In this document: positions 11,707-43,380 of the stretch, in pieces
How positions within the stretch are numbered: the first letter of the stretch is position 1
Layout: the number at the start of each line of letters is the position of its first letter
NCBI GenBank assembly: GCA_001593865.1
Contig: LUCB01000002.1
Location: 25,277-89,276, forward strand
Direction: 5' to 3'
DNA from: Candidatus Bathyarchaeota archaeon B24
GTDB lineage: Archaea > Thermoproteota > CALKCG01 > B24
DNA: 64,000 bases
Made by a program: the position numbers and the translations under genes
Notes under the pieces: generated by a model
The model's input: only the letters and a program-made list of their open reading frames with translations
The model's database searches: none
Told to the model about the DNA's origin: nothing

Positions 11707-12156
11707 TTGAAAATACCTGAGGCATTATCTAAGCTATTCGGTAGGAAGAAGGCTAGGGCTCCCCCGTCGATCGATAGAGATGTCGTATTAGGGCTGGTTC
11801 CCATTAGAAACCCGGCTATAGAGTGGCGTAGGTATAAAAGCGGCGAGGTGGCTATCATAGTAACCGTTAAACGAAGGGGTCTGATGGCGCGTATAGATAA
11901 AGGTGAGAAAAAGAAGAAGATAATACTCGATAAGATGGGTTCTCATGTGTGGAACCTATGCGACGGCGAGCACACGTTCGGAGACATAGTCGAAGACCTC
12001 GTGAAGACCTATAAAATGCATAGGAGAGAGGCGGAGCTTTCCCTCGCAAGCTATTTCGACACTCTGATGAAGAAAGGTCTCATAAGCTTTATCCCAGGAA
12101 AGCTTTCGACGCTAAGGGAGCGTGGAGAAGTTAAGCAGGAAACCCCGCAGACGTAA
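11707..12156 (+). CDS. PqqD-like (RiPP-recognition-element-like) small protein
   Basis: PqqD signature LDKMGSHVWNLCDGEHTFGDIVEDLVKTY...YFDTLMKKGLI. Paralogue of the 18760 gene. Confidence 0.55.
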   Translation: MKIPEALSKLFGRKKARAPPSIDRDVVLGLVPIRNPAIEWRRYKSGEVAIIVTVKRRGLMARIDKGEKKKKIILDKMGSHVWNLCDGEHTFGDIVEDLVKTYKMHRREAELSLASYFDTLMKKGLISFIPGKLSTLRERGEVKQETPQT

Positions 12157-13688: not shown

Positions 13689-13692
13689 AGGA

Positions 13693-21020: not shown

Positions 21021-22010
21021 TTACTTCTCTATCCCAGCCATTTTACGTATCTTCTTCCCGACTATCTCGAGCGGATGCTTCTCTATCTCGGCTAGGAGCT
21101 TCTTAAGAGTCGGCCTACCGGAGGCATCCTCCTTGATCCACTCCTCAGCGTATTTACCGCTCCTAACCTCCTCCGCGACCTTACGCATGTTCTCCTTAAC
21201 CCTGTCGTCGATCACCCTGGGGCCCCTAGTGAGCCCCCCATGTTTAGCCGTATCTGAAACCGCGTAGAGCATGCCCGTTAACCCCCTCTCGTATATAAGG
21301 TCCATTATGAGCTTAGCCTCGTTGCAAGCTTCAAAGTAGGCTAATTCAGGTGGGTAACCCAACTCGACGAGCACCTCGAACCCCTTCTTGATAAGCTCGA
21401 TCAAGCCTCCTACGAGGACGCACTGCTCACCTATAAGGTCGCTCTCCGTCTCGTCCTTGAAAGTCGTCTCTATGACCCCGGCCCTAGTGCAACCCAAGGC
21501 CTTAGCCATAGCTAAGACCGTGTCCTTAGCCTTACCGGTGTAGTCTTGATGAACCGCTATCAGAGCTGGAACACCGAAGCCGTCGAGGTACATACGACGT
21601 ACCAGGAAGCCGGGTCCCTTGGGGGCTACCATGATCACGTCCACGTCCGGCGGTGGAATTATCTGCTTGAAGTGTATGTTAAAGCCGTGGCTGAACCCAA
21701 GGGCCTTACCCTCAGAGAGGTGGGTGACTATGTGCTTCACGTACACCTCAGGCTGAACCGGGTCCGGTATGAGTATGTGGATTATGTCGCCGCGTTTAGC
21801 CGCCTCGCTTATCGTATACACCTCGAACCCCTCCTCCGAGGCAAGCCTCCAGGACCTACCGCCTTCTCTAGCACCTATGATGACCTTCACCCCGGAGTCC
21901 CGGAAGTTCAAAGCCTGGTTTCTACCCTGATTCCCATAGCCTATGACGGCGATAACCCTATCCTTCAACGGGTCGAGGGATACGTCTTTATCGTAGAACA
22001 CCTTAACCAA
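21021..22010 (-). CDS. ilvC: Ketol-acid reductoisomerase
   Basis: [20 protein letters not shown]-terminus. 329 aa. Confidence 0.9.
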
Positions 22011-22027
22011 CGAGGATGCACCTCCGA

Positions 22028-22540
22028 CTATTCTTCGACCTTAAGCGATTTAAGCCCTCTGGACATGGCCACGACCCCTGTCCGGGCAAGTTCCTTGATG
22101 CCGTAGGACCTCATGAGTTCGACGAACGCATCGATCTTATCAGGCGAGCCTGTGATCTCGACTATCATAGAGTCCCTAGACACGTCTACGATCCTTCCTC
22201 TGAATATATTCGCGTAGTTCACCACGTCGCCCTTAGCCTTCGAGTCGGAGGTGTGAATCTTGATCAGCGCCAGCTCCCTGACGACGCTTCTATCCGGGTT
22301 AAGCCTGCTTACTTTGATAACGTCCACGAGCTTCTGAAGCTGCTTTATAACCTGCTCGACCGTCAGCTCATCCCCTCTAACAGTTATAGTCATCCTAGCT
22401 AGGTCCTTAACCTCGCTCACACCGACCGTTATGCTCTCTATGTTGAAGTTCCTCCTCCTGAACATGTTCGAGACCCTGTACAAAACCCCAGGCTTATGCT
22501 CGACAAGAGCCGCCAGAATATGCTCTGCCAAAAGAGACAC
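22028..22540 (-). CDS. ilvN: Acetolactate synthase small (regulatory, ACT) subunit
   Basis: Begins directly after ilvB. ACT-domain-like N-terminus ([21 protein letters not shown]). Confidence 0.85.
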
Positions 22541-22543
22541 CTC

Positions 22544-24244
22544 CTAGATTATCATCTCTCTCAAGCTCTTACCAGGGGGTACGAACGGTAGAACGTTCTC
22601 CTCCCTCGGTATCGGGACATCTATGACGACCGTCACATCGGCCCTTACGGCCTCTTTAAGGACCTGCTCGAGTTCGTTTAAAGAGTGTACCCTAACCCCT
22701 CTGGCTCCAAAGGCCTCTGCGAGCCTGGCGAAGTCTGGTATACCCTTCAGGTCCGTATGGGAGTACCGTCTACCGAAGAATAGCCTCTGCCACTGAGCAA
22801 CCATACCTAGGCTTGAGTTGTTCAACACCATGACTATGACCGGAAGGTCTTCTGTCACGCTGGTAGCTAAGTCCTGCTCGGTCATCAGGAAGCTTCCGTC
22901 GCCCGCTATATCGACGACAGGTACGTCCGGTCTAGCGGCTTTAGCGCCTAGGGATGCAGGGAACCCGAAGCCCATGGTTCCCAGACCGCCTGAAGATATG
23001 AACGTCCTAGGCTTTAGGACCTTGAAGTGTAGAGATGCCCACATCTGGTTCTGACCGACCTCCGTAGCCACTATAGCGTTCTCGGGGAGAACCTTACGCA
23101 AAACCTTAACCGCGTTCGCTCCCGTAAGCTCACCCTTGGGCTCGGTGTCGGCATACTCTTTCTTAAGCGTCTCAACCCTCTTAAGCCACTCAGACTTCTC
23201 CCGTTTCAAACCCCTACGGGTGAGCTCGTCTATGATGGCATTTAAAGCCCTCTTAGCATCGGCTACTATCGGCAGATGCACGGAGACGTTCTTCCTTATC
23301 TCAGACGGGTCTATGTCGATGTGGATTATCTTAGCCTCTGTGCAGAACTCATCCACTTTACCCGTGCTTCTATCAGAGAACCTGACGCCGACCGCTAGGA
23401 CGACGTCAGCCATCATTATCGACTTGTTAGCCTCTACCCTACCGTGCATGCCGATGCATCCGAGACACAGCGGATGATTCTCAGGTATAACGCCTTTACC
23501 CATGAACGTAGTGACCACAGGAGCCATCAGAAGCTCAGCCAACCTAAGGAGCTCTCCGTAAGCGTTAGACCAGTGGATCCCTCCACCAGCTAGGATTATC
23601 GGACGCTCAGCCTCGACAAGCAGGTCTACAGCCCTCTTAACCTGGAGCGGGTGAGGATCCAAGTTAGGCCTATACCCCCTTATTTCGACGTCGACGTCGA
23701 AGTCTATATCATCCACCCCTGTCTGCATGTCTTTAGGCAGGTCTATCAAAACCGGCCCCGGCCTTCCGGCCGTAGCGATATAGAAGGCCTCTTTAACTAT
23801 CCTAGGAATATCTCGAACACTCCTAACCTGGTAGTTGTATTTGGTTATAGGGGTCGTTATGCCGATTATGTCGGTTTCTTGGAAGGCATCTTTACCTATC
23901 AGGCTCGTCGGAACCTGCCCGGTTATAGCGATGACAGGGCTTGAATCCATGTAAGCCGTAGCTATACCGGTGACAAGGTTCGTAGCACCTGGCCCTGAGG
24001 TAGCCATACATACGCCGGGGCCACCTGTAACCCTGGCATACGCGTCGGCCGCATGCGCGGCGCACTGTTCGTGACGCATTAGTATGTGTCTTATCTCCTT
24101 TTCATCGTAGAGAACATCGTAGACAGGCATTATGGCTCCGCCAGGTATCCCGAATATCGTTTTAACGCCTTCCCGCTTCAGAGCCTCTACAATAGCCTGA
24201 CTACCGCTCATCTTCAACCCTACCACCCTCCATAAGCTTCTCAT
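22544..24244 (-). CDS. ilvB: Acetolactate synthase large subunit (ThDP-dependent)
   Basis: ThDP motif GDGSF...NN. Typical N-terminus SGSQAIVEALKREGV. The true start is likely the internal Met near 24211, since the annotated start overlaps leuA by 44 nt. Confidence 0.9.
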   Translation of the reverse strand: MRSLWRVVGLKMSGSQAIVEALKREGVKTIFGIPGGAIMPVYDVLYDEKEIRHILMRHEQCAAHAADAYARVTGGPGVCMATSGPGATNLVTGIATAYMDSSPVIAITGQVPTSLIGKDAFQETDIIGITTPITKYNYQVRSVRDIPRIVKEAFYIATAGRPGPVLIDLPKDMQTGVDDIDFDVDVEIRGYRPNLDPHPLQVKRAVDLLVEAERPIILAGGGIHWSNAYGELLRLAELLMAPVVTTFMGKGVIPENHPLCLGCIGMHGRVEANKSIMMADVVLAVGVRFSDRSTGKVDEFCTEAKIIHIDIDPSEIRKNVSVHLPIVADAKRALNAIIDELTRRGLKREKSEWLKRVETLKKEYADTEPKGELTGANAVKVLRKVLPENAIVATEVGQNQMWASLHFKVLKPRTFISSGGLGTMGFGFPASLGAKAARPDVPVVDIAGDGSFLMTEQDLATSVTEDLPVIVMVLNNSSLGMVAQWQRLFFGRRYSHTDLKGIPDFARLAEAFGARGVRVHSLNELEQVLKEAVRADVTVVIDVPIPREENVLPFVPPGKSLREMII

Positions 24245-25757
24245 AATCCACCAGTAAGGCGTTCATGCCGCTTAAAACTGCTTCGACGCTCGCCATGACT
24301 ATATCCCCCCTAGCACCCATGGCTGTGACCACCCTATCACCCCTCCTGAGTCTAACCATAACCTCGACGACCGCATCCGTCCCACCGGTGATCGCTTTGA
24401 CATGATATTCTTCAAGCTGCACAGGCTCTACGGCCGAGACAGCCTTTCTGATCGCGTTTATAGCCGCGTCCACCGGTCCGACCCCGGTAGCAGCCTCCGT
24501 GATAGACCTACCGTTTAGGCTAAGCCTTACAGAGGCCATAGGGGTGACTCTATTGCCCGTCACGACCGTAAGCTCCTCGAGCATTATGGGTCTAACCCTT
24601 GGAAGCCCTAAAACGGCCTCGGCTATCGCCTGGAGGTCCGCCTCCGTGACCTGCTTACCGCGGTCGCCTAAGGCTTTTACACGCCTTAAGATCTCTGTAA
24701 GCTGCTCCTTACTGACTTCAAGCCCCATACTTCTGAGGACTGCCTCCACGCCGTGGGAGCCCGCGTGTTTACCTACAGCTATCCTCCGAGACGCCCCTAC
24801 AAGCTCGGGTGATATAGGCTCATACGTCGCCGGGTGGGAGAGAACACCATGGGTATGTATACCCGACTCATGGGTGAAGGCGTTATCGCCCACTATGGCC
24901 TTATTCGGCTGGAGGAATATCCCCGTAAGCCTGGCCACGAGCCTAGAGGTCTCGTAGAGAAGCTTAGTCTTGACGTTAAGCTTACAGCCGTATAGCACGG
25001 TTAAGGCTACCACAAGCTCCTCCAGAGCCGCGTTACCAGCCCTCTCCCCGAGACCGTTAACGGTCACGTGAACCTCCTGCGCACCGTTCTTAAGAGCGGT
25101 TATCGAGTTCGATACAGCCAACCCGAAGTCGTTGTGGCAGTGGACGGCGAGGGGAACCGTTACGCTATCCGAGAGCCTCCGAACCATCTCTGCGGTCTTT
25201 TCCGACGTTAAGACACCCACCGTGTCGCATAGGCAGACCCTATCGGCTCCGCATTCGACGGCCTTCTTAAAGACTTTTTCGAGGAAATCTATGTCGCTCC
25301 GGCTTCCGTCCTCGGCTAGAAACTCGACTGTCAAGCCTCTAGTCTTCGCATATTCCACACACTCCTCGGTCCTCTCCAAGACGAAGCCCCTGTCCTTATT
25401 AAGCTTATACTTCAGGTGTAGGTCTGACGTAGGTATGGTCAGGGCCACGCCGTCTACTCCGGCGTCCGCGGCTGAGTCTATGTCGGATTTAACGCATCTG
25501 CTGAAGCTGTAGACGTCGGCTCTAAGCCCCTGTTCGGATATGAGCTTTAAGGCCTCAAACTCTCCCTTAGACGCGGCTGCGAAGCCGGCTTCTATGAAGT
25601 CGACCCCGAGTTCGTCGAGTTTTAACGCGATCCTAAGCTTCTTCTCAGGTGTCAATGATACCCCAGGTGTCTGTTCACCGTCTCTTAAAGTGGTATCTAG
25701 AAGGAGTATTCTAGACGGGAACTCGCAATCCGATGATAAAATACCACCCCACTTCAC
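24201..25757 (-). CDS. leuA: 2-isopropylmalate synthase / (R)-citramalate synthase family
   Basis: LLDTTLRDGEQTPGVSLT active-site motif. HxH. C-terminal LeuA-dimer regulatory domain. 518 aa. Confidence 0.85.
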   Translation of the reverse strand: MKWGGILSSDCEFPSRILLLDTTLRDGEQTPGVSLTPEKKLRIALKLDELGVDFIEAGFAAASKGEFEALKLISEQGLRADVYSFSRCVKSDIDSAADAGVDGVALTIPTSDLHLKYKLNKDRGFVLERTEECVEYAKTRGLTVEFLAEDGSRSDIDFLEKVFKKAVECGADRVCLCDTVGVLTSEKTAEMVRRLSDSVTVPLAVHCHNDFGLAVSNSITALKNGAQEVHVTVNGLGERAGNAALEELVVALTVLYGCKLNVKTKLLYETSRLVARLTGIFLQPNKAIVGDNAFTHESGIHTHGVLSHPATYEPISPELVGASRRIAVGKHAGSHGVEAVLRSMGLEVSKEQLTEILRRVKALGDRGKQVTEADLQAIAEAVLGLPRVRPIMLEELTVVTGNRVTPMASVRLSLNGRSITEAATGVGPVDAAINAIRKAVSAVEPVQLEEYHVKAITGGTDAVVEVMVRLRRGDRVVTAMGARGDIVMASVEAVLSGMNALLVDYEKLMEGGRVEDER

Positions 25758-25899
25758 ATCCCCCTGGATGAGGTAAAGCGCAAGCCTATTTTAAACCGGC
25801 TACACACATATAAGCTTTACCTTAGAAAGGCTAAGTTCAGAGCAAGACTTAACTAAGGATTTTCGAGTATTTTCAACGTATCGTTTAGGGTGTTTAACC

Positions 25900-27558
25900 T
25901 TGACCGGGTTCAGAAGTGAAGAAGTAAAAAGGGGTTTAGATAGAGCGCATCATAGGGGGCTACTCTTCTCCCTAGGCATAGGGAGGAAGGACTTAGACAA
26001 GCCGTTCATAGGCGTGGCCAGTAGCTACACCGACATCGTCCCCGGACACATGCACCTAAGACGCTTAGCCGAAGCCGTTAAAGAAGGTGTCTGGAGGGGT
26101 GGGGGAGTCCCGTTCGAGTTTAACACTGTAGCCGTATGCGACGGTATAGCGATGGGTCATAGAGGTATGAAATACTCCCTACCCTCTAGGGAGCTGATAG
26201 CCGATAGCGTGGAGGTCATGGCTGAGGCGCATAGGCTAGACGGGCTAGTACTGCTGACGAACTGCGATAAGATAACACCTGGGATGCTCATGGCCGCTGC
26301 TAGGCTCGACATACCCTGCATAGTCGTAACCGGTGGCCCGATGGGCTCCGGCAGGTGGAGGGGTGAAAAGACGGGGATACTTACGGTCGTGGAGGCCGTG
26401 GGTAAGGTGTTGGCCGGCCAGATGACCGAGGAGGAGCTTAGAAGACTCGAGGACATAGCATGTCCGACCTGTGGGGCTTGTAACGGCCTCTTCACGGCTA
26501 ACACGATGGCCTGCCTCTCGGAGGCGTTGGGCATGGCTTTACCCTACACGGCGACGATCCCGGCGTATTACTCCAGCAAGCTCTCTAAGGCTAGGGAAGC
26601 CGGTGAACAAGCGGTTAGGCTCGTCGAAAAGGGGTTGACTCCTTCTAAGATTTTGACGGCTGAGGCTTTCGAGAACGCCATCGTGGTGGACATGGCCCTC
26701 GGGGGCTCTACGAACACGATACTCCACCTACCAGCCATAGCGGAGGAGCTTGGCATAGAGATCCCCCTAGACCTCTTCGACAAGATAAGCCGTAGGGTTC
26801 CGCATCTGGCAAACCTGATAGGTGTCGGAGGGGATATGGACATGGAGGACTTCCATAGAGCGGGAGGCGTCCCCGCCCTGATGAACGAGCTTAGAGAGCT
26901 ACTACACCTAGACGCGTTAACCGTTACCGGTAGGACCCTGAGAGAGAACATAGCCGGGGCTCAGGTTCTGGATAGGCGTGTGATAAGACCCCTAAGTAAG
27001 CCCTTAAGGAAGGAGGGGGGTATAGCCATACTGAAGGGTACATTAGCCCCTGAGGGCGCGGTCGTCAAGGCGGCTGCGGTCTCAGATAGGGTTAAGGTGT
27101 TTAAGGGGCCTGCTAGGGTCTTCGACAGCCATGAGGATGCTTTGAAGGCGATAGAGGAACATGCGATCGAGGAGGGGGAGGTCGTGGTCATAAGGTATGA
27201 GGGGCCTATGGGTGGACCTGGCATGCAGGAGATGCTGATACCTACGGCTCTGATATACGGTATGGGTCTATCGGAAAACATAGCCCTCGTTACAGACGGT
27301 AGGTTCTCCGGGGCGACCCGAGGACCCTGTATAGGCCATGTCTCTCCTGAGGCCTATGAGGGGGGACCGATAGCGCTGGTCGAAGACGGGGATGAGATAG
27401 AGATAGACATCCCAAGGAGAATTCTAAACCTAAATGTTGACCGTGAGGTCTTAGAGGATAGAAAGGCTAGGTGGAGGAGGCCTGAGAGGAGGCTTAAGGG
27501 ATTCCTAGCTAAATACGTGAAGGTTCAAATGGCCAAAAGGGCTAAAGAGCCGTTATAG
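25900..27558 (+). CDS. ilvD: Dihydroxy-acid dehydratase
   Basis: [15 protein letters not shown] and SGGP motifs. 552 aa. Divergent from the ilv operon. Confidence 0.9.
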
Positions 27559-28786
27559 TCTCCCTTATCGCCTTTTTAAGGTACTCCTCTACGGCCTTAG
27601 GGAGACCTACGATACCGGACTCGAGGAATCCTCGGACTATCATAGATACGGCCTCCTCTTCCGTGAAGCCCCTAGCCTGGAGGTAGAAGACCTCTTCCTC
27701 GGATATACGTCCTATAGCCGCCTCGTGGGTGAGTTCCACGTCCTTCGCCTTAGCCACAAGCTCAGGTATAGCAGATATTACGGCTTTCTCGGACACTAGG
27801 ATGCCGTTACACTCAGTATGCCCCCTGACGCCGTCCATAAAGCCGACTATCCTACTCCTAACCACGGTCTCAGAGGAGTCTCCTCCGACGACTTTAGACA
27901 CGGCTTCGCCGCTCGTCTGGGGAGCCTCCAAGCGTATACAGGAACCGATATCCATTTTCGAGGATCCCGAGGCTAGGAGTATAGACGTCGTGAGCGCGCT
28001 CGACTCCTTCCCGATGAGCCTTACGACTGGATACGCTTGTATCGTATTCGCAGGTTTGAGTACGACGTAGTTGCTTATGAAGCGTCCTCCCTCTTTGACG
28101 ATCACGCCGGTCCTAGGTCTTATGTGAGAGCCCCGGCTCCAGCTATGTATCATCGTGAAGGTTACCGTGGCGTTCCTTCCAACGTAGAACTCAGAGATAC
28201 CTGCGTGTAACCCGAAGCTCTCGGGAGCCTGTGTGCATCCGGTTATAACGTGGAGCGTCGACCCCTCCTCCGCGACCACTATGTTGTGGGTCGTCTGAAG
28301 ACTCCGCGGACTCTTCATAAGCAAACAAGTCTGAACCGGCATCTCGGTTTTCACGCCTTTCTCAGCCACTACGACGTATCCCCCTTCCTCGTAGAGAGCC
28401 GCCACGGCTGTGAACTTGTCCAAGTCGACAGGAACGGCTTTCCAGTAGAGACCCCTTAACCAGTCTAAGCTCTTCAAAGCCTCTTTGAGGCTTAAAACCT
28501 TCACACCCTTCTTATGGCTTCGGCTGTACGCTACCCTCTGGTCGACCTGCAGATAACTTCCCAGAACGCTTTTTTCACCCGTATCGAGGCCTATGGACTT
28601 TACGATATTTCTCAGTCGTTCAGAGAGGTCTCTTAGGCTTTCAGCTTCTAAACCCGTATAGTCGGGGGTGAACTCGGAGGTCTCTAGGTCTAACCCGTAT
28701 CTAGGAGGTTTATCTAAGGCTTTCTCAGCCCTACGTTTGAGCTCATCTGTCAGAACCAAACTCTTCTCCTCGCCTTCTCGAAGCAT
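27542..28786 (-). CDS. sufB: Fe-S cluster assembly protein SufB (short archaeal form)
   Basis: [17 protein letters not shown]-terminal [25 protein letters not shown]. Confidence 0.8.
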
Positions 28787-29514
28787 GCTTTACACTTCTC
28801 GAAGCCGCTTTCTAGGATTTGGCTAACCACGTCCTCACCTTTTCCATAGCAGAATATCTCACCGTTCATCATGACGTATGCCCTGGAGGGTTTCAGATAC
28901 TTAGCTATGGCGCCTACATGGGTGATTATCAAAACAGCTCTCCTCGTGCTCACAAGCTGCCCATCACCCTGTAAGAACCGGTTTAACGCTTCACCCATTA
29001 TGGCTAGGTTTTCCACATCCACCCCCGAGTCTGGCTCATCTAACAAGACGAGTCTAGGATTCTGTAACAGCGTTAGGAGAAGCTCGAACCTTTTAACCTC
29101 ACCGCCGCTGAAGCCCACATAGAGCTCTCTATCCATGAATTTCTCCAGCCTAAGAAGCGATACGAGCTTTTCCACGTATTCGTCGGAAACCCCGAACCTA
29201 CTCGCCACCTCCTCTACGAGATAGCCGGCTTTAAGACCCCGTATCTTAGGAGGCATCTGGAAAGAGGCCGCTATGCCGAGCTTAACCCTATCCTCCGGTT
29301 CAAGACCCGTTATATCGGTGCCCCGGAAAAATATCCGGCCGGATACGATTCTATAAGAGGGGTTACCGAGTATCGCCTGGATCAAGGAGGTTTTACCCGA
29401 GCCGTTAGGGCCGAGTAGAAATATGGTCTCCCCATACCCTACGGAGAGGCTGACCCCGTTTAGAACCCTCTTACCTGAAACCTCGACGTGTAGGTCCCTA
29501 ACCTCTAGGATCAT
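28750..29514 (-). CDS. sufC: Fe-S cluster assembly ATPase SufC
   Basis: Walker A GPNGSGKT. ABC signature FSGGE. Walker B LLDEPDSG. Confidence 0.85.
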   Translation of the reverse strand: MILEVRDLHVEVSGKRVLNGVSLSVGYGETIFLLGPNGSGKTSLIQAILGNPSYRIVSGRIFFRGTDITGLEPEDRVKLGIAASFQMPPKIRGLKAGYLVEEVASRFGVSDEYVEKLVSLLRLEKFMDRELYVGFSGGEVKRFELLLTLLQNPRLVLLDEPDSGVDVENLAIMGEALNRFLQGDGQLVSTRRAVLIITHVGAIAKYLKPSRAYVMMNGEIFCYGKGEDVVSQILESGFEKCKACFEKARRRVWF

Positions 29515-35347: not shown

Positions 35348-35890
35348 TTAATGGGTTATCCCTATACGCGTATAAATCTCCCTAGGGGCCTTAACCTCGA
35401 CTATCATATTGACCACGTCAGCCCTATCGACGAGTTCAGGTGGACAGTATCTTCCGGTCAACACGACATCCGTCTCTTCAGGAACCTCGTCTAGAAGGTT
35501 TAAGACCTCTTGAACATCGACCAGGCCTATGTACGCGGCTAGGCATATCTCATCCAGTACAAGTAGATGCGGTTTACTCTTCAGAACCTCCCTGGCCTTT
35601 TCAAGAGCCTTCTTCGCCAGAGCCTTATCGGTCTCGGATGGGTTTCTTAGGTCCACCCACCCCCTCCTACCGAACTGGTATATCTCGTAGTACGGTTTAA
35701 GCTTCTCCATGACCTTATACTCCCCTATGTCCTTACGGCCCTTCATGAACTGGATGATCACAGCCTTCAAGCCATGGCCTACACACCTTAAAGCCAACCC
35801 GAGCGCGTTCGTAGTTTTACCGGCTCCGGTCCCGTAGTATAGGAATATCTTACCCAAGGCTACTCCACCTCGCAGCTTTCCCTCGGGCAT
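35348..35890 (-). CDS. cobO: Cob(I)yrinic acid a,c-diamide adenosyltransferase (CobO/BtuR/CobA type)
   Basis: P-loop YGTGAGKTTNALGLALR. 180 aa. Confidence 0.8.
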   Translation of the reverse strand: MPEGKLRGGVALGKIFLYYGTGAGKTTNALGLALRCVGHGLKAVIIQFMKGRKDIGEYKVMEKLKPYYEIYQFGRRGWVDLRNPSETDKALAKKALEKAREVLKSKPHLLVLDEICLAAYIGLVDVQEVLNLLDEVPEETDVVLTGRYCPPELVDRADVVNMIVEVKAPREIYTRIGITH

Positions 35891-38247
35891 CCCTCCGGCG
35901 GCTTAACACCGACGGGAAGAACCCTCTCGGTGGTTCTTCTACGGGGTTTAACCCCTAGCTCCAAGACCTGCTCACCCTTACTACCATACCGGTAGACCGT
36001 TATACCCTTACAACCGAGCCGATAAGCCAATAAGAACGCCTTCTTAACGTCTTCAGGTGAAGCGTCGGGTCTCAGGTTTATCGTCTTCGACACTGCGTTG
36101 TCGGTGAATTCTTGGAACGCAGCCTGCATCTTAACATGCCAATCCACGTCTACTTCCAAAGCCGTTACGAAAACTCTTCGAATATCCTCCGGAAGCCCCT
36201 CTATGTGGGAGAGCATACCCGTCTTAGATATCTCAGCCATAACCTCGTCGCTGTAAACGCCCCTCTCCTTAAGAACCTCCTCGAGAACCGTGTTTACTTC
36301 GAACAACCTCACGCCCCCGAGAACCGTCCTAGAGTATACGAGGGCGAAGACCGGCTCTATACCGCTCGAGGTGCCGGCTATTATGCTTATGGTTCCGGTC
36401 GGAGCCACGGTGGTCGTGGTAGCGTTCCGTATACCATGCTTCTTAACGGCTTCCCTCACCCTACTCCAGTCTAGCGTGTAATGTTTCACCTCACCCTCGG
36501 CTTCGAAGGGCATACGGGGATTCTCGGAGTCATATATAGAGCCCTTGAAGGCAGGAAAGCTACCTCTCGCCTCAGCAAGCTCGGCCGACATGAGCTTGCT
36601 ATGGTAGTTGATATACTCCATAATCCTCCTGGCGAGCTCGATAGCCTCCTCGGAGTCGTAGGGGATTCCAAGTCTGAAGAGCATGTTGGCCCATCCCATG
36701 ACCCCTAAACCTATCTTACGCGTTCTAAGGGTTGTTTCCTCGATCTCAGGTATCGGGAAGTGGTTAGCGTCTATGACGTTGTCCAAGAAGTGGGTAGCAA
36801 CTCTGACAACTTCTCTGAGCTTCTTCCAGTCGACAACCCATCTACCCCTTTCAAACTTGACCATACGCTCCAGGTTTATAGAGCCCAAGTTACATGACTC
36901 GTAAGGAAGAAGCGGCTGTTCGCCGCAGGGGTTGGTGGCTTCGATCGTTCCTAAGCGGGGGGTTGGATTGTGTCTGTTAACCGTGTCTAGGAATATTATA
37001 CCTGGGTCTCCCGACCTCCACGCGTTGTAGACGATCATGTCGAAGAGGTATCTTGCGTTAACCTCTTGAACAGGTTTACCGGTTCTCGGGTTTACGAGCT
37101 TAAACTCAGCACCCTTCTCCACGGCCTCCATGAACTCATCGGTCACGGCGACGGATATGTTGAAGTTCCTCAGAGCCCCCTCCTCGCTTTTAGCGTAGAC
37201 GAAGTCTATTATATCGGGGTGGTCGACCCTGAGGATCCCCATGTTAGCGCCTCGACGTTTCCCACCCTGCTTGATGACATCGGTAGCTACGTCGTAGATG
37301 CGCATAAAACTGACAGGGCCGGAGGCCACGCCGCTCGTAGACCTTACTACATCGCCTTTAGGCCTGAGCTTCGAGAAGTTGAAGCCTGTGCCTCCACCGC
37401 TCTTATGGATCAGAGCCGTGTTTTTCAGAGATTCGAATATGCTCTCTATCGAGTCGTGAACCGGTAATACGAAGCACGCGGAGAGCTGGCCCAGAGGGGC
37501 GTTAGCGTTCATGAGGGTCGGTGAGTTAGGTAGAAAGTATCTGTTCGCCATTACTTGGAAGAAGACGTCGATCACGTTCTCGTAAAGCGTATCCCACCGC
37601 TCCTCTACAAGCGATAAAAGCTCTTCGAAGCTCACCCTCATCTTACCCTCTTTACCGAGCCTGTTGTAGAGCCTCTTCATCATCTCAAGCTCGTAGCTCG
37701 TCAAACCTGCTTTACCGGGTTTGTACTCAAACTTCTCGACCTGCCTTACGGGTTGCCGTCCATCCTTATCGTATACGTCGCTCCAGTAGAAGGCGTCTAC
37801 GAGACCTATATACCTCGATACCCTCATCAGCATCTGCTTAGGCGTCTCGACTATGTTTCCACGCTCATCCTTCAGAAGGTATCGGCTCTTCAACACGGTG
37901 ACTGCGTTTAAGGTGAGCTTCATATCGTCTACAACGCCTAGCATACGTTTGATCTCCCTGATCTCAGACCGTCTACGCCTGTAGAGGATGTAGGCCTTAG
38001 CAGCCTCGTAAAGCCCGTTTCTAACCAGAACCTTCTCGACTATATCCTGAATCTGCTCGACATGAGGAGTCGAACCCACACCGAATGTGTCGTCGAGGAT
38101 CTTAACTACCTCGTCTCCGAGCCTCTCGGCTAGAGACCTATCCTTCAAGCCTGTGGCTTGGAAAGCCTTCCAGATAGCCTCGACTATCCGGTTTTTATCA
38201 AAATCTACTATACGACCGTCACGTTTAATCACTTTAGACGGAGGCAA
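35860..38247 (-). CDS. nrdJ: Class II (adenosylcobalamin-dependent) ribonucleoside reductase with N-terminal ATP-cone
   Basis: ATP-cone VIKRDGRIVDFDKNRIVEAI. Active-site region NPCGEQPL. C-terminal Cys pair. 795 aa. Confidence 0.85.
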   Translation of the reverse strand: MPPSKVIKRDGRIVDFDKNRIVEAIWKAFQATGLKDRSLAERLGDEVVKILDDTFGVGSTPHVEQIQDIVEKVLVRNGLYEAAKAYILYRRRRSEIREIKRMLGVVDDMKLTLNAVTVLKSRYLLKDERGNIVETPKQMLMRVSRYIGLVDAFYWSDVYDKDGRQPVRQVEKFEYKPGKAGLTSYELEMMKRLYNRLGKEGKMRVSFEELLSLVEERWDTLYENVIDVFFQVMANRYFLPNSPTLMNANAPLGQLSACFVLPVHDSIESIFESLKNTALIHKSGGGTGFNFSKLRPKGDVVRSTSGVASGPVSFMRIYDVATDVIKQGGKRRGANMGILRVDHPDIIDFVYAKSEEGALRNFNISVAVTDEFMEAVEKGAEFKLVNPRTGKPVQEVNARYLFDMIVYNAWRSGDPGIIFLDTVNRHNPTPRLGTIEATNPCGEQPLLPYESCNLGSINLERMVKFERGRWVVDWKKLREVVRVATHFLDNVIDANHFPIPEIEETTLRTRKIGLGVMGWANMLFRLGIPYDSEEAIELARRIMEYINYHSKLMSAELAEARGSFPAFKGSIYDSENPRMPFEAEGEVKHYTLDWSRVREAVKKHGIRNATTTTVAPTGTISIIAGTSSGIEPVFALVYSRTVLGGVRLFEVNTVLEEVLKERGVYSDEVMAEISKTGMLSHIEGLPEDIRRVFVTALEVDVDWHVKMQAAFQEFTDNAVSKTINLRPDASPEDVKKAFLLAYRLGCKGITVYRYGSKGEQVLELGVKPRRRTTERVLPVGVKPPEGCPRESCEVE

Positions 38248-38390
38248 GATAATCGTAAACTAGTCTCTATGAACCATGTCTTAAACTTTTATGTACATTC
38301 AACTCTAGAGGAGTATACTTCATAGCTCGTAGGGATGGAGACGCTGAGGCTTGGAAACTGTTTTAAGAATGTTCGGCTTTGATAAAGTTG

Positions 38391-38402
38391 GGTTGATCAA
38401 CC
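38391..38402. promoter_or_regulatory. Perfect 12-bp palindrome GGTTGATCAACC ending immediately before the pta ATG
   Basis: Read directly. Confidence 0.4.
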
Positions 38403-39410
38403 ATGACAGTTATGGAAACTATCATAGAGAGGTCTAAAAAGAGACCTGGTAGAATAGTCTTACCCGAAGGCACTGACGAGAGGATTTTGAAAGCAGCCAG
38501 CGTAGCGGCGGAGACGGGTATAGCTAAGCCCGTGCTTCTGGGAAGAGAGGAAGACGTCAGAGACTTAGCGTCTAAACTGAACGTGAGCCTCGACGGTGTG
38601 GAGATCTTGAACCCTGAAACTTCTCCTAAACTCGGTGAATATGTCAAGCGTTATTTAGCCATAAGAAAGGGTAAACGTGTTACCGAAGCCATAGCCAGAA
38701 GGATCCTCAGAAAACCTCTCTTTTACGGTGCTATGATGGTCGGTGTAGGAGACGCGGACGGTATGGTAGCCGGAGCCGTGTCTCTGACGGCTAACGTCAT
38801 AAGAGCTGGACTGCTTTTGATAGGACTTGAGAAAGACATCTCGGTGCCTTCAAGCTTCTTTATAATGGAAACAAACAACAGGAACGTCGGAGAAGACGGT
38901 GTCCTCATATTCGCCGACGCCGCTGTGAACCCAGACCCGACTCCTGAACAGTTAGCCGACATAGCGGTGGCCTCTGCCAGGAGCGCACGAAGGCTTCTGG
39001 GATGGGAGCCTAGGGTAGCTCTACTATCCTTCTCGACTAAGGGCAGCGCGGCTCACCCGATGGTCGACAAAGTGGCCGAAGCCGTCAAGATAGCTAAATC
39101 CAAAGCACCTGACTTGGCGATAGATGGAGAGATGCAGGCCGACGCGGCTTTGATACCTGAGGTCGCGCGAAGGAAGATCAAGACAGGTCTTGGACCAGTC
39201 GCCGGGAGGGCTAACGTGTTGATATTTCCAGACCTCGATGCCGGCAATATCGCGTACAAGCTTGTCCAACACGTCTGCGGAGCTAAGGCATACGGTCCGA
39301 TACTCCAAGGGTTCTCAAAGCCTATCAGCGACCTCTCGAGGGGTGCTAAGGCCGACGAGATAGTAGGTGTCATAGCCGTGGTGAACCTCTTATCCATGAC
39401 GGAACACTAG
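38403..39410 (+). CDS. pta: Phosphate acetyltransferase (Pta/PtaB, phosphotransacylase)
   Basis: [17 protein letters not shown]-terminus. [10 protein letters not shown]. Confidence 0.85.
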
Positions 39411-39438
39411 GTTCACACTGGTCCGGGGTGTAGCATAG

Positions 39439-40650
39439 TTGAAGGTGTTGGTGATAAACTGCGGAAGTTCTACGATAAAGTATAAGGTCTTCCAGGTTCA
39501 AGACGGTTCTACGCTTAAGGAGCTTGCATCGGGGCTTTTAGAGAGGATAGGGTCGGATAAATCCACGTTGACCCACCGTCGAGACGGAGAAACTTACAAG
39601 TTCGAACTCGAAGCTAAAGACCACAGAGAGGGCTTAGAGTCTATACTGAAGATCTTAACGAGCAAGGAGCACGGTGTTATAGAGGATCCTTCCGAAGTCT
39701 TCGCCGTAGGACATAGGGTCGTCCACGGTGGAGATTCCGTGTTTCAGCCGACCGTCATCACGGAAGACCTCCTTAACGTCATAAGACGGTGGAGCGATAT
39801 GGCACCACTGCATAATCCTGCGAACCTAGCGGGGATCGAAGCGGCGATCTCCCTACTTCCCGGAGCTCATCAGGTAGCCGTTTTCGATACTGCGTTTCAC
39901 CAGACGATGCCCGCAGAGGCTTATCTCTACGCGATACCGTACGAGTACTACGAGCGTTACAGGATACGACGATACGGTTTCCACGGCACCTCGCATAGGT
40001 ATGTGGCTTATAAAGCCGCCGAGGTTTTGAATAGAGACATCTCAGAACTTAAAATGGTCACATGCCACTTAGGGGCTGGATGCAGCATCACGGCCGTCTG
40101 CGGGGGTAAATCCATCGATACGAGTATGGGATTCACACCGCTCGAGGGACTTGTGATGGCTACCAGGTCTGGGGATATAGACCCATCTCTCATATTCTTC
40201 CTAGTTAGAAAAGAGGGATTAAACGTTGAGGAGGTGGAGAATCTACTGAACCGCAAGAGCGGGCTTCTAGGGCTTTCAGGGGTAAGCGGGGATGTACGGG
40301 ATATATGGAGGGAAGTCGAGAAGGGAAACCAAAGAGCGGAGCTGGCCATGAGGGTGTTCGCGTATAGGGTGAAGAAATACATAGGCGCCTACGCCGCCGC
40401 GATGGGAGGGCTCGACGCGATAGTGTTCACGGCGGGCATAGGTGAGAACGACTGGAGGACCAGGGAGCTCATATGCGAGGGACTTGAATATCTAGGCGTC
40501 AGACTCGATAAAAGGCTTAACCGTATGACATCTAAGGAGCCCAGGATCATAAGTAGTGACGACTCGAAGGTCAAGGTTCTAGTGATCCCGACAGACGAGG
40601 AGCTGGCTATAGCCTTAGAGACCTTAAACCTCCTGCTTAGAAAGAGATAA
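39439..40650 (+). CDS. ackA: Acetate kinase
   Basis: MKVLVINCGSSTIKYKVF. VVHGG. FHGTSH. 403 aa. Confidence 0.9.
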   Translation: MKVLVINCGSSTIKYKVFQVQDGSTLKELASGLLERIGSDKSTLTHRRDGETYKFELEAKDHREGLESILKILTSKEHGVIEDPSEVFAVGHRVVHGGDSVFQPTVITEDLLNVIRRWSDMAPLHNPANLAGIEAAISLLPGAHQVAVFDTAFHQTMPAEAYLYAIPYEYYERYRIRRYGFHGTSHRYVAYKAAEVLNRDISELKMVTCHLGAGCSITAVCGGKSIDTSMGFTPLEGLVMATRSGDIDPSLIFFLVRKEGLNVEEVENLLNRKSGLLGLSGVSGDVRDIWREVEKGNQRAELAMRVFAYRVKKYIGAYAAAMGGLDAIVFTAGIGENDWRTRELICEGLEYLGVRLDKRLNRMTSKEPRIISSDDSKVKVLVIPTDEELAIALETLNLLLRKR

Positions 40651-40687
40651 ATTGTATGCTTTATGTCTAAATAGATGGTGAGCCGAA

Positions 40688-41950
40688 GTGAAGCTATGCA
40701 TTTTCGAAGATAGGAAGTACGATAACCTGTACCCGCTGACCCTTACGAGAACGGTTTTCGAGCTTAGATGCGGTGCGACGTCTCTTATGGATAAAATCGA
40801 ACGAAGCGCCCCGAACGTCGACGTCGTGTACTTCATGCGCGACTATCTCGTAGAGATTTTCAAGGAGAGATACGGGGAACGGTGCGTGAACGACTTGAAC
40901 ACCCTGAAAGATGATGTCCTTCTCGTCAACGGTCGGTTACTCACTAAAACAGGCGACCTAAGTCTAGAGGGAGACGAGGAAGTAGCCGTTAAAGATGGAG
41001 ACGTCGTCTATGTAAGGGCTAAGAAAGGGACCATGGAGAAGCTTCTCGCAGATAGCCTGGAGAAAACGCTTGAGAACCTTAAGGAGGAACTCAGCGTTAA
41101 AGAAGTAGATGCGACGCTGATAGAGTATCCGTGGGACCTAGTCAATAACAACTCCAAGGCTATAGTCGAGGATTTCAAGCATATAGGTAGCGGCATACAT
41201 GGTGAGCTGCATCCACAAGCTGTCGTAGTAGGGGATAAAGAGAACCTGTACATCGCTAAGACTGCTAGGGTGCATCCATACACGGTTATAGATGTCGAGA
41301 ACGGGCCGGTCATCATCGACGAAGGGAGTATAGTGTACCCGTTTAGCAGGATAGAGGGGCCTACTTACGTGGGTAAGAACTGCTGGATCCTTAGAGGCAA
41401 CATCAGGGAAGGTGTAAGCCTTGGGCCTGTATGTAGGGTAGGCGGTGAGGTCGAGGAGTCTATAATACACGGGTACTCTAATAAGTACCATACCGGTTTC
41501 CTCGGCCACTCGTACGTGGGAGAGTGGGTTAACATAGGTGCCCTAACGACGAATAGTGATATTAAGAATGACTATACGTCTGTTAAAGTCTATATCAAAG
41601 GGGAATTCGTGGATACTAAGACCCAGAAAGTCGGCTCGTTCATCGGAGACCACACCAAGTTCAGCATAGGGTGCCTACTGAACACGGGTAGCCACATCGG
41701 CGTCGCATGTAACCTACTGGCCTCTGGTGAGCCGCTTCCGAAGTATATTCCAAGCTTCTGTTGGTACTTCAGAGGGAGATTTAGCCGGGGCTGGGGCTTC
41801 AGGAGGACCATAAAGTCTGAGAGCGCCATGATGGCTAGGAGAAAAGTCGAGATGACCGAGGCTAGGGTTAAGCTTCTGAGACGCATATACGATGAGACTA
41901 AGGAGGAGAGGGAAACCCTAATTAGAATGAGTAGGAGGAGAGTTAGGTAG
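40688..41950 (+). CDS. Hexapeptide-repeat (left-handed beta-helix) protein with a degenerate sugar-nucleotidyltransferase-like N-domain (GlmU/eIF2B-gamma-epsilon-like architecture)
   Basis: N-terminus KLCIFEDRKYDNLYPLTLTR resembles the NTP-transferase LYPxT region but lacks the GxGxR loop. C-terminal half has about 8 hexapeptide repeats (VIDVENGPVIIDEGSIVYP...). Confidence 0.5.
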   Translation: MKLCIFEDRKYDNLYPLTLTRTVFELRCGATSLMDKIERSAPNVDVVYFMRDYLVEIFKERYGERCVNDLNTLKDDVLLVNGRLLTKTGDLSLEGDEEVAVKDGDVVYVRAKKGTMEKLLADSLEKTLENLKEELSVKEVDATLIEYPWDLVNNNSKAIVEDFKHIGSGIHGELHPQAVVVGDKENLYIAKTARVHPYTVIDVENGPVIIDEGSIVYPFSRIEGPTYVGKNCWILRGNIREGVSLGPVCRVGGEVEESIIHGYSNKYHTGFLGHSYVGEWVNIGALTTNSDIKNDYTSVKVYIKGEFVDTKTQKVGSFIGDHTKFSIGCLLNTGSHIGVACNLLASGEPLPKYIPSFCWYFRGRFSRGWGFRRTIKSESAMMARRKVEMTEARVKLLRRIYDETKEERETLIRMSRRRVR

Positions 41951-41963
41951 TTTAAGGGGAGGG

Positions 41964-42215
41964 TTGGAGATGTCGGAGAGCATCGAGGCTCGGGCTAAGA
42001 GGCTTATAGCCGAGCAGTTTGGAGTAGACCCGGAGGAGCTTAAGCCTGAAACCCATCTGGTCAAAGACCTCAAGATGGAGTCTCTGGATAAGATAGAGCT
42101 CATAGCAGCCTTTGAAGAGGAGTTTGACATAGAGATTCCGGAAGAAGAAGCCGAGAGAAACGTCACGGTGGGGCAAGTAATCGAATACGTCAAAGCCAAG
42201 CTAGGCGTCAAATAA
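41964..42215 (+). CDS. acpP: Acyl carrier protein, bacterial AcpP-type
   Basis: RAKRLIAEQFGV...DLKMESLDKIELIAAFEEEFDIEIPEEEAE. Ppant-Ser motif (D/E)SLD and helix-II acidic patch align closely with canonical bacterial ACP. Probable start at the third residue, Met (41970). Confidence 0.85.
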   Translation: MEMSESIEARAKRLIAEQFGVDPEELKPETHLVKDLKMESLDKIELIAAFEEEFDIEIPEEEAERNVTVGQVIEYVKAKLGVK

Positions 42216-42254
42216 CATTCTAGGGTCTAAAATTTTTAACTATCTCTTTTTCTC

Positions 42255-42668
42255 TTGGAAAATAGGGGATTCTTATTGGGTTTAGATACTGGTATCAAGG
42301 GATTGGGCGTAGACCTGATGGAGATAGAGAGGCTTAAACGTAGCGTCGAGAGGAGGGGTAGACGTCTTTTAGAGAAGATATTCACCGAGGAGGAGATAAG
42401 ATACTGCTTCTCTATGGGAGAGCCTTATCAACATCTCGCCGCGAGGTTCTGTCTTAAGGAAGCCGTCTTGAAGGCTTTTGGACTCGGATTAGGTAGAGGT
42501 GTAACCCTGAGAGATATAGAGGTTAAGCTCAACGAGCTGGGTAAACCCTACGTGGAGATACATGGTCGATTAAAGGAGAAAGCCGAAAAATCCGGGGTCT
42601 CGCGTATAATCGTAAGTATGAGTCACAGCGGAGAATATGCGATAGCGGTAGCCATACTCACCGGGTAG
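42255..42668 (+). CDS. acpS: Holo-[acyl-carrier-protein] synthase (AcpS-type 4'-phosphopantetheinyl transferase)
   Basis: GLGVDLMEIERL...ARFCLKEAVLKAFG...LGKPYV matches AcpS G(I/V)D..EI / AKEA..KA / LGKP motifs. The TTG start is uncertain. Confidence 0.8.
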   Translation: MENRGFLLGLDTGIKGLGVDLMEIERLKRSVERRGRRLLEKIFTEEEIRYCFSMGEPYQHLAARFCLKEAVLKAFGLGLGRGVTLRDIEVKLNELGKPYVEIHGRLKEKAEKSGVSRIIVSMSHSGEYAIAVAILTG

Positions 42669-43380
42669 GGTTTTCAGCCCGCTCCAGTCTCTTACGGTGT
42701 AGGTCGAGGTTTTTCTCCACTTCGTAGACGAGTCTTGCGACCACAACCCACGTGTTTAAAGATTCAGGGTCTATAGAATAGCATACGTCAAAGAGTCTCA
42801 TATTCTCCTCTTCGAAGTCACCATGTGGGAAGCCTCCGACGACCGCCATAGCCACCTCTACGTTAACCATCTCAGAGACCACCACGTCTAAGGGTTTAGG
42901 CTCTCCAGAAGTCGAGAAGCCTATGGTGATAGCCGGTTTAACCTCGTTCTTCAACTCGGCTAGAGAGCCGTCTCTAAGCGTTATAAGAGGCTCACCGTCT
43001 GGCGGAACTCTGCCGAGCTTAAAGAGCTGTTCGATGAGACCCTTGAACCGCATGTAGTTACGTGGAAGCCTGACCTCTGGGTTGAATTCGAGAACCTTAT
43101 CGTTAACCGTGTGGACGTAGACATCTAAGAGACCCTCTCTAGCCAAGGGTGTTTCCAACGCGTTTAACAGCGAGAAGTGGACGATGTCAGGTCTACCACG
43201 TTTATGAGCGTTTCTCAACCCCCTCATAGCCCTATGGTGGTAAGAACGGTCTAGGAGTACTTCACCGGGTTTCAACCCTCTATCACGTGCATATCTCCTA
43301 ACCTCAGGATGCCACCACAGGGCTTCAGGCACTGTTTCCAAGGCAGACTCGGCGATCACAAGTACTAAACGCTTCAACAT
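42658..43380 (-). CDS. nep1: Ribosome biogenesis protein Nep1/Emg1 (SPOUT pseudouridine-N1 methyltransferase)
   Basis: RPDIVHFSLLNALETPLAREGLLDVYVHT. Confidence 0.75.
   Translation of the reverse strand: MLKRLVLVIAESALETVPEALWWHPEVRRYARDRGLKPGEVLLDRSYHHRAMRGLRNAHKRGRPDIVHFSLLNALETPLAREGLLDVYVHTVNDKVLEFNPEVRLPRNYMRFKGLIEQLFKLGRVPPDGEPLITLRDGSLAELKNEVKPAITIGFSTSGEPKPLDVVVSEMVNVEVAMAVVGGFPHGDFEEENMRLFDVCYSIDPESLNTWVVVARLVYEVEKNLDLHRKRLERAENPTR

Follow-up and report, generated by a model that had tools for sequence, protein, structure and literature searches.

The genes pta, ackA, hex, acp and acpS lie head to tail on the + strand at 38403-42668 of a 64-kb stretch of the genome of Candidatus Bathyarchaeota archaeon B24 (64,000 nucleotides of contig LUCB01000002.1; here, the window). 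The cluster belongs to a widespread module of bacterial type, built around a GlmU-like acetyltransferase that comes with an acyl carrier protein (ACP) of its own. By hex we mean the GlmU-like hexapeptide protein, a member of PF13562/TIGR03991, and its gene. We put forward tentatively, at somewhat less than even confidence, that the module carries out ACP-dependent N-acetylation of glucosamine phosphate, fed by acetyl-phosphate or acetyl-CoA, rather than fatty-acid synthesis. A sequence-only reading of the window had picked out the five co-directional open reading frames (ORFs) at positions that hold, and curated hidden Markov models (HMMs) now identify all five (Table 1); the PP-binding, ACPS and NTP_transf-type families were matched, with Hexapep reaching only 22 bits. 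That reading had suggested a functionally coupled ACP system, possibly acquired from bacteria and re-wired, with a degenerate nucleotidyltransferase (NTase) domain. The ACP system, its origin and the coupling stand; "re-wired" and "degenerate" do not, and the amino-sugar partner described below had been missed.

The functional tie of the hexapeptide protein to the ACP, suspected from a single locus, is now backed by conserved gene order. A genome scan with hex gave 23 related loci, and our census—a profile scan of metagenomes together with an HMM census—holds 107 non-redundant hex loci. Among the 90 with at least 450 nt of downstream sequence, an ACP gene on the same strand and within 400 nt directly follows hex in 68, at hex identities of 43-100%, while several further loci (L008, L063 and L072 of the census) hold an ACP elsewhere in the module. 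Where wide flanks were available (39 loci), an ACP was present in 34, NagB or SIS in 23, pta with ackA in 23 and acpS in 9. From these counts the hex-ACP pair emerges as the core of the module and the other genes as frequent accessories. No informative fusions appeared among the 150 best of the ~1,500 representatives of 50%-identity clusters that make up the hex family at E<=1e-30; almost all were about 400-440 aa long.

The order pta-ackA-hex-acp pre-exists in Planctomycetota, Aerophobetes, Omnitrophota and many unclassified bacteria, which is why we do not regard the archaeal cluster as re-wired. In the first three of these groups, and in Abditibacteriales, Desulfobacteraceae and unclassified metagenome-assembled genomes, pta and ackA stand directly upstream of a hex gene whose product is 48-57% identical to that of B24, and a small ACP that tblastn had missed stands directly downstream. 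More distant hex relatives (33-42% identity; Calditrichaceae, KSB1, Muribaculaceae, Ignavibacterium) have no nearby pta or ackA. Nor is the cluster unique among archaea, as it had first seemed: Bathyarchaeota B26-2, AUK193 and M10_bin190 have this set of five as well, and so do a "Thermoproteota archaeon", Brockarchaeota and a CdvA-encoding lineage. The module with acpS is present in at least four archaeal lineages. The "Thermoproteota archaeon" and Brockarchaeota carry pta-ackA-hex-acp-acpS in differing genomic settings, and in the CdvA-encoding lineage, where the contigs measure 445 kb and 1.47 Mb, the block SIS-hex-acp converges on acpS-ackA-pta. Some bacteria show the order nagB-pta-hex-acp-ackA, and one variant, pta-hex-nagB, is without ackA or acp (L038). 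Co-localization of the module genes thus survives rearrangement in the CdvA lineage, in Brockarchaeota and in some bacteria. The acpS gene adjoins acp in every archaeal copy examined. The idea that acpS was added only in archaea is weakened by bacterial loci in which it lies convergent beside the module (L021, L076 and L086, probably also L058 and L085); the flanks of L076 encode LigA, IspH, PlsC and Dtd. The Brockarchaeota loci L030 (4339-4740) and L031 (1798-2199) have a GTP cyclohydrolase I-type gene (PF02649) between pta and ackA.

That the host is an archaeon is clear from the surroundings of the cluster. Hex of the window is 100% identical to a protein that NCBI assigns to "Candidatus Bathyarchaeota archaeon B24". 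A class II ribonucleotide reductase gene lies on one side, with genes for Nep1, Rpp21, the ribosomal proteins P1, P0, L1 and L11, and Spt5 on the other, and an identical gene order, both junctions included, recurs in four independent assemblies (ERZ584659, GCA_003662455.1, ERZ27227321 and SRR6823442). GC content, GC at third codon positions (GC3) and codon usage of the five genes are within the range of the flanking genes. Because four assemblies share both junctions and the composition matches the flanks, the cluster is no chimera or contaminant; it is resident in the archaeal genome and long ameliorated. A bacterial fragment mis-assembled or mis-binned into an archaeal genome, a danger that the sequence-only reading had itself raised, would account for the bacterial affinities of all five genes, yet beyond the junctions and composition it would have to contend with related cassettes in other archaeal contigs of up to 1.47 Mb, and we find it scarcely credible.

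These affinities bear out the proposed bacterial origin. The nearest relatives of the B24 AcpS form a small clade at 61-66% identity, and next come bacterial AcpS proteins at <=53%. Neighbor-joining (NJ) trees of hex, Pta, AckA and ACP, which are crude (BLOSUM distances, midpoint rooting, no support values), place the archaeal sequences mostly near or among bacterial ones; Bathyarchaeota, Thermoproteota and Brockarchaeota group together, and the CdvA lineage joins other archaea only in the Pta and ACP trees. Such groupings fit inheritance as one unit after transfer from bacteria, and the AcpS hit list agrees. A further locus, L023, has the arrangement nagB(-)/pta-ackA-hex and lies at the end of a 78-kb contig labeled "uncultured Thermococci archaeon" (CAZJVP010000018.1), so that the sequence downstream of hex is cut off. 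In the NJ trees its hex and Pta lie on branches separate from those of the other archaea.

Genes may, of course, be inherited side by side without sharing a pathway. Pta and AckA would then simply be the acetate/ATP pair of fermentation or acetogenesis, hex an alternative GlmU that uses acetyl-CoA, and ACP and AcpS would serve a cryptic fatty-acid, lipoate or biotin route encoded elsewhere. The routine association of pta-ack in Bathyarchaeia with acetogenesis or acetate use (PMC10321748, PMC10116835) is in keeping with this, as are the hypothetical GlmU equivalog name attached to TIGR03991 ("alt_bact_glmU") and the 16 of 39 well-flanked hex loci that are without pta-ackA. We nonetheless consider it quite unlikely. 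The genes remain together through rearrangements and across domains, the NJ trees are broadly congruent, acpS accompanies acp throughout the archaeal copies, and hex-ACP adjacency over so wide a range of hex identity is hard to ascribe to inertia.

Hex itself begins with an NTase-fold domain, continues with an acyltransferase domain that forms a left-handed beta-helix, and ends in a basic tail of three helices (370-419). It scores 370.8 bits against TIGR03991 (cutoff 225.3), with residues 1-401 on profile positions 1-394, and 97 bits against PF13562 (cutoff 27). The bifunctional GlmU equivalogs are a different matter, at 22 bits against 367 for TIGR01173 and 99 bits against 292 for TIGR03992, the latter match covering the beta-helix region only. 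The N-terminus of hex reads MKLCIFEDRKYDNLYPLTLTR and lacks the GlmU G-loop (L-x2-G-x-G-T-R/K-M). In its place F6-E7-D8 is invariant in 46 hex homologues and in a 27-sequence alignment that includes distant bacterial members, so the missing loop is a trait of the whole PF13562/TIGR03991 family and not, as "degenerate" had implied, a sign of local decay, which we reject. By the same token, the nucleotidyl-transfer half of the automatic name "GlmU" is doubtful. At L021 of the census, a GlmU-like protein with a normal G-loop (LAAGHGKR) is encoded at 7374-8864 (TIGR01173 175 bits, below cutoff), ~1.3 kb downstream of hex-acp/acpS, and hex there co-exists with a more conventional NTase/beta-helix protein.

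The acyltransferase half keeps its catalytic His. A sequence match in the PDB is limited to residues 205-342, to ST0452 of S. tokodaii (E 9e-14), and the AlphaFold2 model of hex (mean predicted local distance difference test score, pLDDT, 86.7; predicted template-modeling score, pTM, 0.89) finds its best full-length fold match in the same protein (TM score 0.61-0.64), with bacterial GlmUs next in line. In the alignment, H268 of hex, a residue invariant in the 46 homologues, is the counterpart of the catalytic His308 of ST0452. Hex thus shares with ST0452 and GlmU the two-domain architecture and the beta-helix with its catalytic His; it differs from them in having F-E-D where they have a G-loop (GxGTR), in a longer and strongly basic helical tail, and in a gene paired with that of an ACP, the ST0452 and GlmU genes being unpaired. 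Each of the 27 aligned homologues has a basic tail, whose pI is 9.3-11.4 in the ACP-linked proteins and 8.75 in the most distant one, and R384, R385 and R408 are invariant. The C-terminal helices of LpxD are an ACP recognition domain, and by analogy the basic tail of hex is a plausible docking surface for ACP. Together with the adjacency of the two genes, these helices suggest that hex uses an acyl-ACP as donor.

The comparison with LpxA and LpxD invites a further reading, in which hex would transfer a long acyl chain from ACP to an amino-sugar phosphate, giving an N-acyl-hexosamine precursor of a lipid or glycolipid. Hex belongs to the LpxA/LpxD fold class of beta-helix acyltransferases that act on amino sugars, its inferred ACP dependence would add to the likeness, and its helical extension is comparable in position to the ACP-recognition domain of LpxD (LpxD-ACP structure 4IHF, cited in PMC10863985). 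The matches to the LpxA and LpxD models are weak, however, at 17.8 bits against a cutoff of 231 (TIGR01852) and 17.1 bits against 242 (TIGR01853), which leaves hex outside both families, and its beta-helix comes nearest to the ST0452/GlmU type, which transfers acetyl groups. The company of Pta and AckA indicates C2 or C3 units rather than 3-hydroxyacyl chains, and hex occurs in archaea, which have no lipid A, no known route to long acyl-ACPs and, in these loci, no fab genes nearby. We judge long-chain acylation improbable.

The carrier protein is a genuine one. Acp matches PF00550 (49.5 bits against 20.8) and TIGR00517 (82.1 bits) and is of the AcpP type; the Ser of its M-E-S-L-D motif aligns with Ser36 of E. 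coli AcpP (D-S-L-D), at the start of helix II. The carrier Ser is kept in 76 of 76 hex-linked ACPs, and with this the possibility that the ACP might lack it, on which the sequence-only reading had staked part of its case, falls away. The motifs that it quoted can be read in the translations: ..DLKMESLDKIELIAAFEEEFD.. in the ACP and GVDLMEIERL, CLKEAVLKAFG and LGKPYV in AcpS. Hex-linked ACPs are acidic (pI 4.1-4.7; 4.47 in the window), and their motif is mostly E-S-(V/I/L/M)-(Q/D) with AAFEEEF, against D-S-L-D in housekeeping AcpP; among the features compared, only the E-S-x-Q/D motif sets the two apart. Their position without fab neighbors suggests that the bacterial hex-linked ACPs are second, dedicated ACPs. 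AcpS is a single-domain protein of 130-137 aa that matches PF01648 (84 bits against 25) and is of the AcpS type; given its adjacency to acp in all archaeal copies, it would transfer phosphopantetheine from CoA to the neighboring ACP. Curated HMMs and archaeal flanks together confirm that an AcpP-type ACP and an AcpS-type phosphopantetheinyl transferase are present in an archaeon, as had been claimed. Both are otherwise missing from nearly all archaea, and the few known archaeal ACP cases have been ascribed to bacterial transfer (PMC3533463; 10.1101/2024.07.05.601840).

What, then, would an archaeon do with an ACP? Neither the window nor the sequence flanking the cassettes of other archaea yielded a fab, polyketide synthase (PKS), nonribosomal peptide synthetase (NRPS) or Lpx gene; the type II fatty-acid synthase partners fabD, fabH, fabF, fabG, fabZ and fabI are thus lacking from both. 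On this ground, which extends to the 64-kb window and those flanks, we reject fatty-acid synthesis, and the archaeal ACP most likely serves sugar acetylation instead.

At the acetyl end of the module, Pta exceeds the TIGR00651 cutoff and aligns with solved Pta structures at E 1e-73 to 2e-81. The alignment includes the IRKGK, VIRAGL and SDLSRG segments, which in the Methanosarcina thermophila enzyme supply the CoA-binding Arg and the catalytic Ser-Arg pair. AckA is full length, covering positions 4-403 of the 405 in the TIGR00016 profile. All that is left of ackA in the B26-2 lineage is a set of frameshifted remnants between pta and hex (L005:199-723, L039:437-956) that match AckA residues 243-398 in two reading frames at 34-40% identity, while pta, hex, acp, acpS and nagB remain intact.

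The strongest clue to the substrate class comes from a partner that B24 does not carry nearby. Clustering of flanking ORFs identified NagB as a recurrent neighbor of the module (TIGR00502 348 bits, cutoff 237), in bacteria mostly just upstream of pta and in archaea beside the cassettes of B26-2 and of Brockarchaeota-like contigs. In the CdvA lineage its position is held by a GlmS isomerase-only protein (positions 254-604 of 607, 287-297 bits). NagB and the isomerase half of GlmS are unrelated, and both interconvert fructose-6-phosphate plus ammonia with glucosamine-6-phosphate; an ammonia-type glucosamine-6-phosphate deaminase/isomerase of one kind or the other is what the 23 of 39 well-flanked loci counted above contain. 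Such non-orthologous displacement of NagB by a protein of the same chemistry points to glucosamine phosphate as the substrate class. One bacterial locus encodes, between hex and acp, a 783-aa "glucosamine-6-phosphate deaminase-like" fusion of the PRK02122 type (L008:9263-11614, -).

NagB and Pta-AckA are typically catabolic, and hex occupies the position that nagA has in classical nag operons. One may therefore imagine the module run in reverse: hex would replace NagA and pass the acetyl group of N-acetylglucosamine phosphate to ACP, Pta and AckA would recover it as acetyl-phosphate and ATP, and NagB would deaminate the sugar, which gives every gene a role. Textbook group-transfer potentials speak against such energy-conserving deacetylation. 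Amide hydrolysis yields ~5-15 kJ/mol, while thioester formation and ATP synthesis need ~30 kJ/mol or more; by our estimate the sequence would be uphill overall by at least ~20 kJ/mol, and NagB could not pull it. The B26-2 lineage, moreover, has lost ackA and kept the remainder of the module. We reject the scheme on its estimated thermodynamics and hold it to be very improbable. The resemblance to nagA-nagB operons and to the anabolic NagB homologue of the Giardia type lies in a glucosamine-6-phosphate deaminase/isomerase gene standing beside one for an N-acetyl-handling enzyme; in the module the amidohydrolase NagA is replaced by a beta-helix acyltransferase with an ACP, and the direction would, on the same thermodynamic grounds, be anabolic.

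The N-acetylation that we favor could proceed as follows. AcpS would convert apo-ACP to holo-ACP using CoA, and would be needed in archaea because they normally have no phosphopantetheinyl transferase of this kind. AckA and Pta would interconvert acetate, acetyl-phosphate and an acetyl thioester. The module's own ACP would receive and carry the acetyl group, whether from acetyl-CoA or, by the direct action of Pta, from acetyl-phosphate. Acetyl-ACP would dock on the basic helices at the C-terminus of hex, much as ACP does on LpxD, and deliver its cargo to the beta-helix site for N-acetylation of glucosamine phosphate. Where present, NagB or the GlmS isomerase-only protein would make that substrate from fructose-6-phosphate and ammonia, the exergonic acetylation pulling the amination forward. 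In net terms, acetate or acetyl-phosphate would feed the synthesis of N-acetylhexosamine phosphate by a route that needs no glutamine. What the sequences show is which genes are present, that the module is conserved, that hex is linked to ACP, that the catalytic His and the carrier Ser are kept, and that genes of bacterial affinity reside in an archaeal genome; we infer acetyl-ACP as donor, the identity of the acceptor, the direction in which NagB runs and the enzyme that loads the ACP.

Several observations weigh against this scheme and account for our caution. The acceptor-binding residues Y311 and N331 of ST0452 align with F271 (invariant) and D291 of hex, so that the acceptor or its binding mode may differ and the substrate is perhaps not glucosamine-1-phosphate. 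No nagB or SIS gene lies within the 64-kb window. Hex is followed by no adjacent ACP in 22 of the 90 scored loci, and module composition varies from locus to locus, as the 16 well-flanked loci without pta-ackA also attest. All hex-linked ACPs exceed the AcpP-model cutoff (75-95 bits), and NCBIfam scores do not separate them from housekeeping AcpP. The decay of ackA in the B26-2 lineage makes AckA look dispensable for the module. Fermenters and acetogens have plentiful acetyl-CoA, which makes a private acetyl supply hard to explain. The module encodes no dedicated acetyl-CoA:ACP transacylase or other ACP-loading enzyme, Pta looks canonical and so gives no sign of preferring ACP to CoA, and our literature search returned no biochemical data for any PF13562 member.

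In its more specific form, the scheme would bypass free CoA: acetyl-phosphate from AckA would be used by Pta, or by hex, to load the private holo-ACP, and the acetyl-ACP so formed would N-acetylate glucosamine phosphate derived from fructose-6-phosphate and ammonia. We think this version unlikely, though its consequences would be considerable. If true, it would represent a previously unrecognized glutamine-independent hexosamine route in many uncultured bacteria and several archaeal lineages, it would give archaeal ACP its first defined physiological role unrelated to fatty acids, and it would explain the long-known interaction of ACP with GlmU in E. coli.

That interaction lends itself to another interpretation as well, namely that ACP is a regulatory or structural partner of hex and not its donor. 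Hex would then use acetyl-CoA, as GlmU and ST0452 do, and the holo- or acyl-ACP loading state would tune or stabilize it, in the way that E. coli ACP modulates SpoT, MukB and IscS. Canonical GlmU co-purifies with ACP in E. coli and P. aeruginosa (PMC6158461), and AlphaFold2 puts Ser36 of AcpP inside the GlmU acetyltransferase chamber (interface pTM, ipTM, 0.908; PMC10863985), yet GlmU uses acetyl-CoA; the ordinary, CoA-dependent appearance of Pta and the want of a loading enzyme in the module fit such a partner role too. Archaea, however, are without an acyl-ACP pool, so a regulatory ACP would have little to sense. They also retain both acp and acpS, and the carrier Ser is invariant in 76 of 76 linked ACPs, which argues that the prosthetic group matters. 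We give a purely regulatory ACP a real but minor share of our belief. The module resembles the AcpP-GlmU association of the E. coli and P. aeruginosa interactomes (PMC6158461, PMC10863985) in joining an ACP to a GlmU-type enzyme. In those bacteria a housekeeping AcpP and a canonical GlmU are encoded far apart, whereas in the B24-type module the gene of a dedicated ACP paralogue comes straight after the GlmU-like gene, and the two have entered archaea in the company of AcpS. The module accordingly offers a genetic rationale for an interaction that is unexplained in model bacteria.

Compared with what is already on record for archaea, the B24 pair stands out by its context. In the summary that PMC3533463 gives of Lombard et al. 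2012, ACP and AcpS, together with malonyl-CoA:ACP transacylase, occur sporadically in a few archaea as bacterial acquisitions. The B24 pair is likewise of bacterial origin within an ACP-less domain; it differs in belonging to a defined module that recurs in several archaeal lineages, with no malonyl-CoA:ACP transacylase or fab gene near it. The module offers a role for ACP and AcpS in archaea, carrier-dependent amino-sugar acylation, that bears on arguments about the "lipid divide".

Pta and AckA call for a similar reappraisal. The pair is usually read in Bathyarchaeia as evidence of acetogenesis or acetate utilization (PMC10321748, PMC10116835). The same two genes occur in hydrothermal Bathyarchaeota genomes, but in the B24 lineage they make up the 5' half of a bigger module gained by lateral transfer, and their role may be tied to hex and ACP rather than, or besides, bulk acetate production. 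He et al. 2016 reportedly treated Pta-AckA of Bathyarchaeota as a marker of acetogenesis or acetate use; that use needs care in metabolic reconstructions, because here the genes are part of an acquired module that seems to serve another end, and ackA has decayed in one lineage. Annotations of hex call for the same caution: the family has no nucleotide-binding loop and is linked to ACP, so the automatic names "GlmU" and "sugar nucleotidyl transferase" are probably either mistaken or incomplete. A literature search of incomplete coverage found nothing on ACP in Bathyarchaeota, on PF13562/TIGR03991/NTP_transf_4 or on this combination of genes, and the module is apparently undescribed. The component families are all known, and the novelty lies in their combination and reach: a GlmU-like enzyme has a dedicated ACP as its partner, the pair is linked to ammonia-type glucosamine-6-phosphate enzymes and Pta/AckA, and it occurs in several archaeal lineages.

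Table 1. Genes and putative control elements of the cluster, in window coordinates; HMM scores are given with the model cutoff where one was recorded.
Feature	Position	Strand or setting	Basis
Intergenic region of 155 nt, presumed promoter of the cluster	38248..38402	between divergent class II ribonucleotide reductase gene and pta	sequence reading
pta, phosphate acetyltransferase, 335 aa	38403..39410	+	PF01515 391 bits; TIGR00651 358 bits, cutoff 311
ackA, acetate/propionate-family kinase, 403 aa	39439..40650	+	PF00871 513 bits; TIGR00016 520 bits, cutoff 293
hex, GlmU/ST0452-like two-domain protein, 420 aa	40688..41950	+	PF13562 NTP_transf_4 97 bits; TIGR03991 371 bits, cutoff 225
acp, AcpP-type acyl carrier protein, 83 aa from TTG 41964	41964..42215	+	TIGR00517 82 bits, cutoff 70.45
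Two T5 runs in the acp-acpS spacer	42233..42251 (at 42233 and 42247)	+	sequence reading
acpS, holo-ACP synthase, 137 aa from TTG 42255	42255..42668	+	TIGR00516 100.5 bits, cutoff 59.8

Some of these calls admit alternatives. Database gene calls for ackA also use a start that gives 399 aa; acp more likely starts at ATG 41970 (81 aa), with GGGGAGGG upstream and public gene calls in agreement; and the likely start of acpS is TTG 42276 (130 aa), as in database gene calls. The intergenic gaps are 28, 37, 13 and 39 nt, the last two becoming 19 and 60 nt with the alternative acp and acpS starts. Upstream of pta, the presumed promoter region is A+T-rich and contains TTTTATG and TTTAAGAATG stretches. 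The T5 pair constitutes the sole T runs of at least five within 38248-42700, and it falls just where the pta-ackA-hex-acp unit known from bacteria ends. The runs may act as an archaeal oligo-T terminator or attenuator, as an acpS promoter element, or as both, and because they occur only in this spacer, acpS may be expressed separately, at least in part, or more weakly. At its 3' end acpS overlaps the convergent nep1 (ORF 42658-43380, -) by 11 nt (42658-42668), so that the acquired cassette directly abuts a core ribosome-biogenesis gene without a spacer.

Elsewhere in the window, the class II (adenosylcobalamin-type) ribonucleotide reductase gene that borders the cluster encodes an ATP-cone and overlaps a downstream gene for a CobA/BtuR-type corrinoid adenosyltransferase by ~30 nt (35348-38247, -); the two would be a pair of enzyme and cofactor maker. 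A PqqD-like small protein (11707-12156, +), a radical-SAM protein (13693-14589, -) and an MtrH-like methyltransferase (14586-15506, -) are encoded close together among several ORFs without a Pfam match, and the region 11707-15506 might be a peptide-maturation or methyl-transfer locus. Branched-chain amino-acid biosynthesis occupies 21021-27558, with ilvC, ilvN, ilvB and leuA on the - strand and ilvD on the + strand, and is followed by SufB/D and SufC at 27542-29514. Finally, 4828-7529 (-) encodes a NurA nuclease and a HerA-like (DUF87/FtsK-type) ATPase, the pair that forms the archaeal DNA end-resection module.

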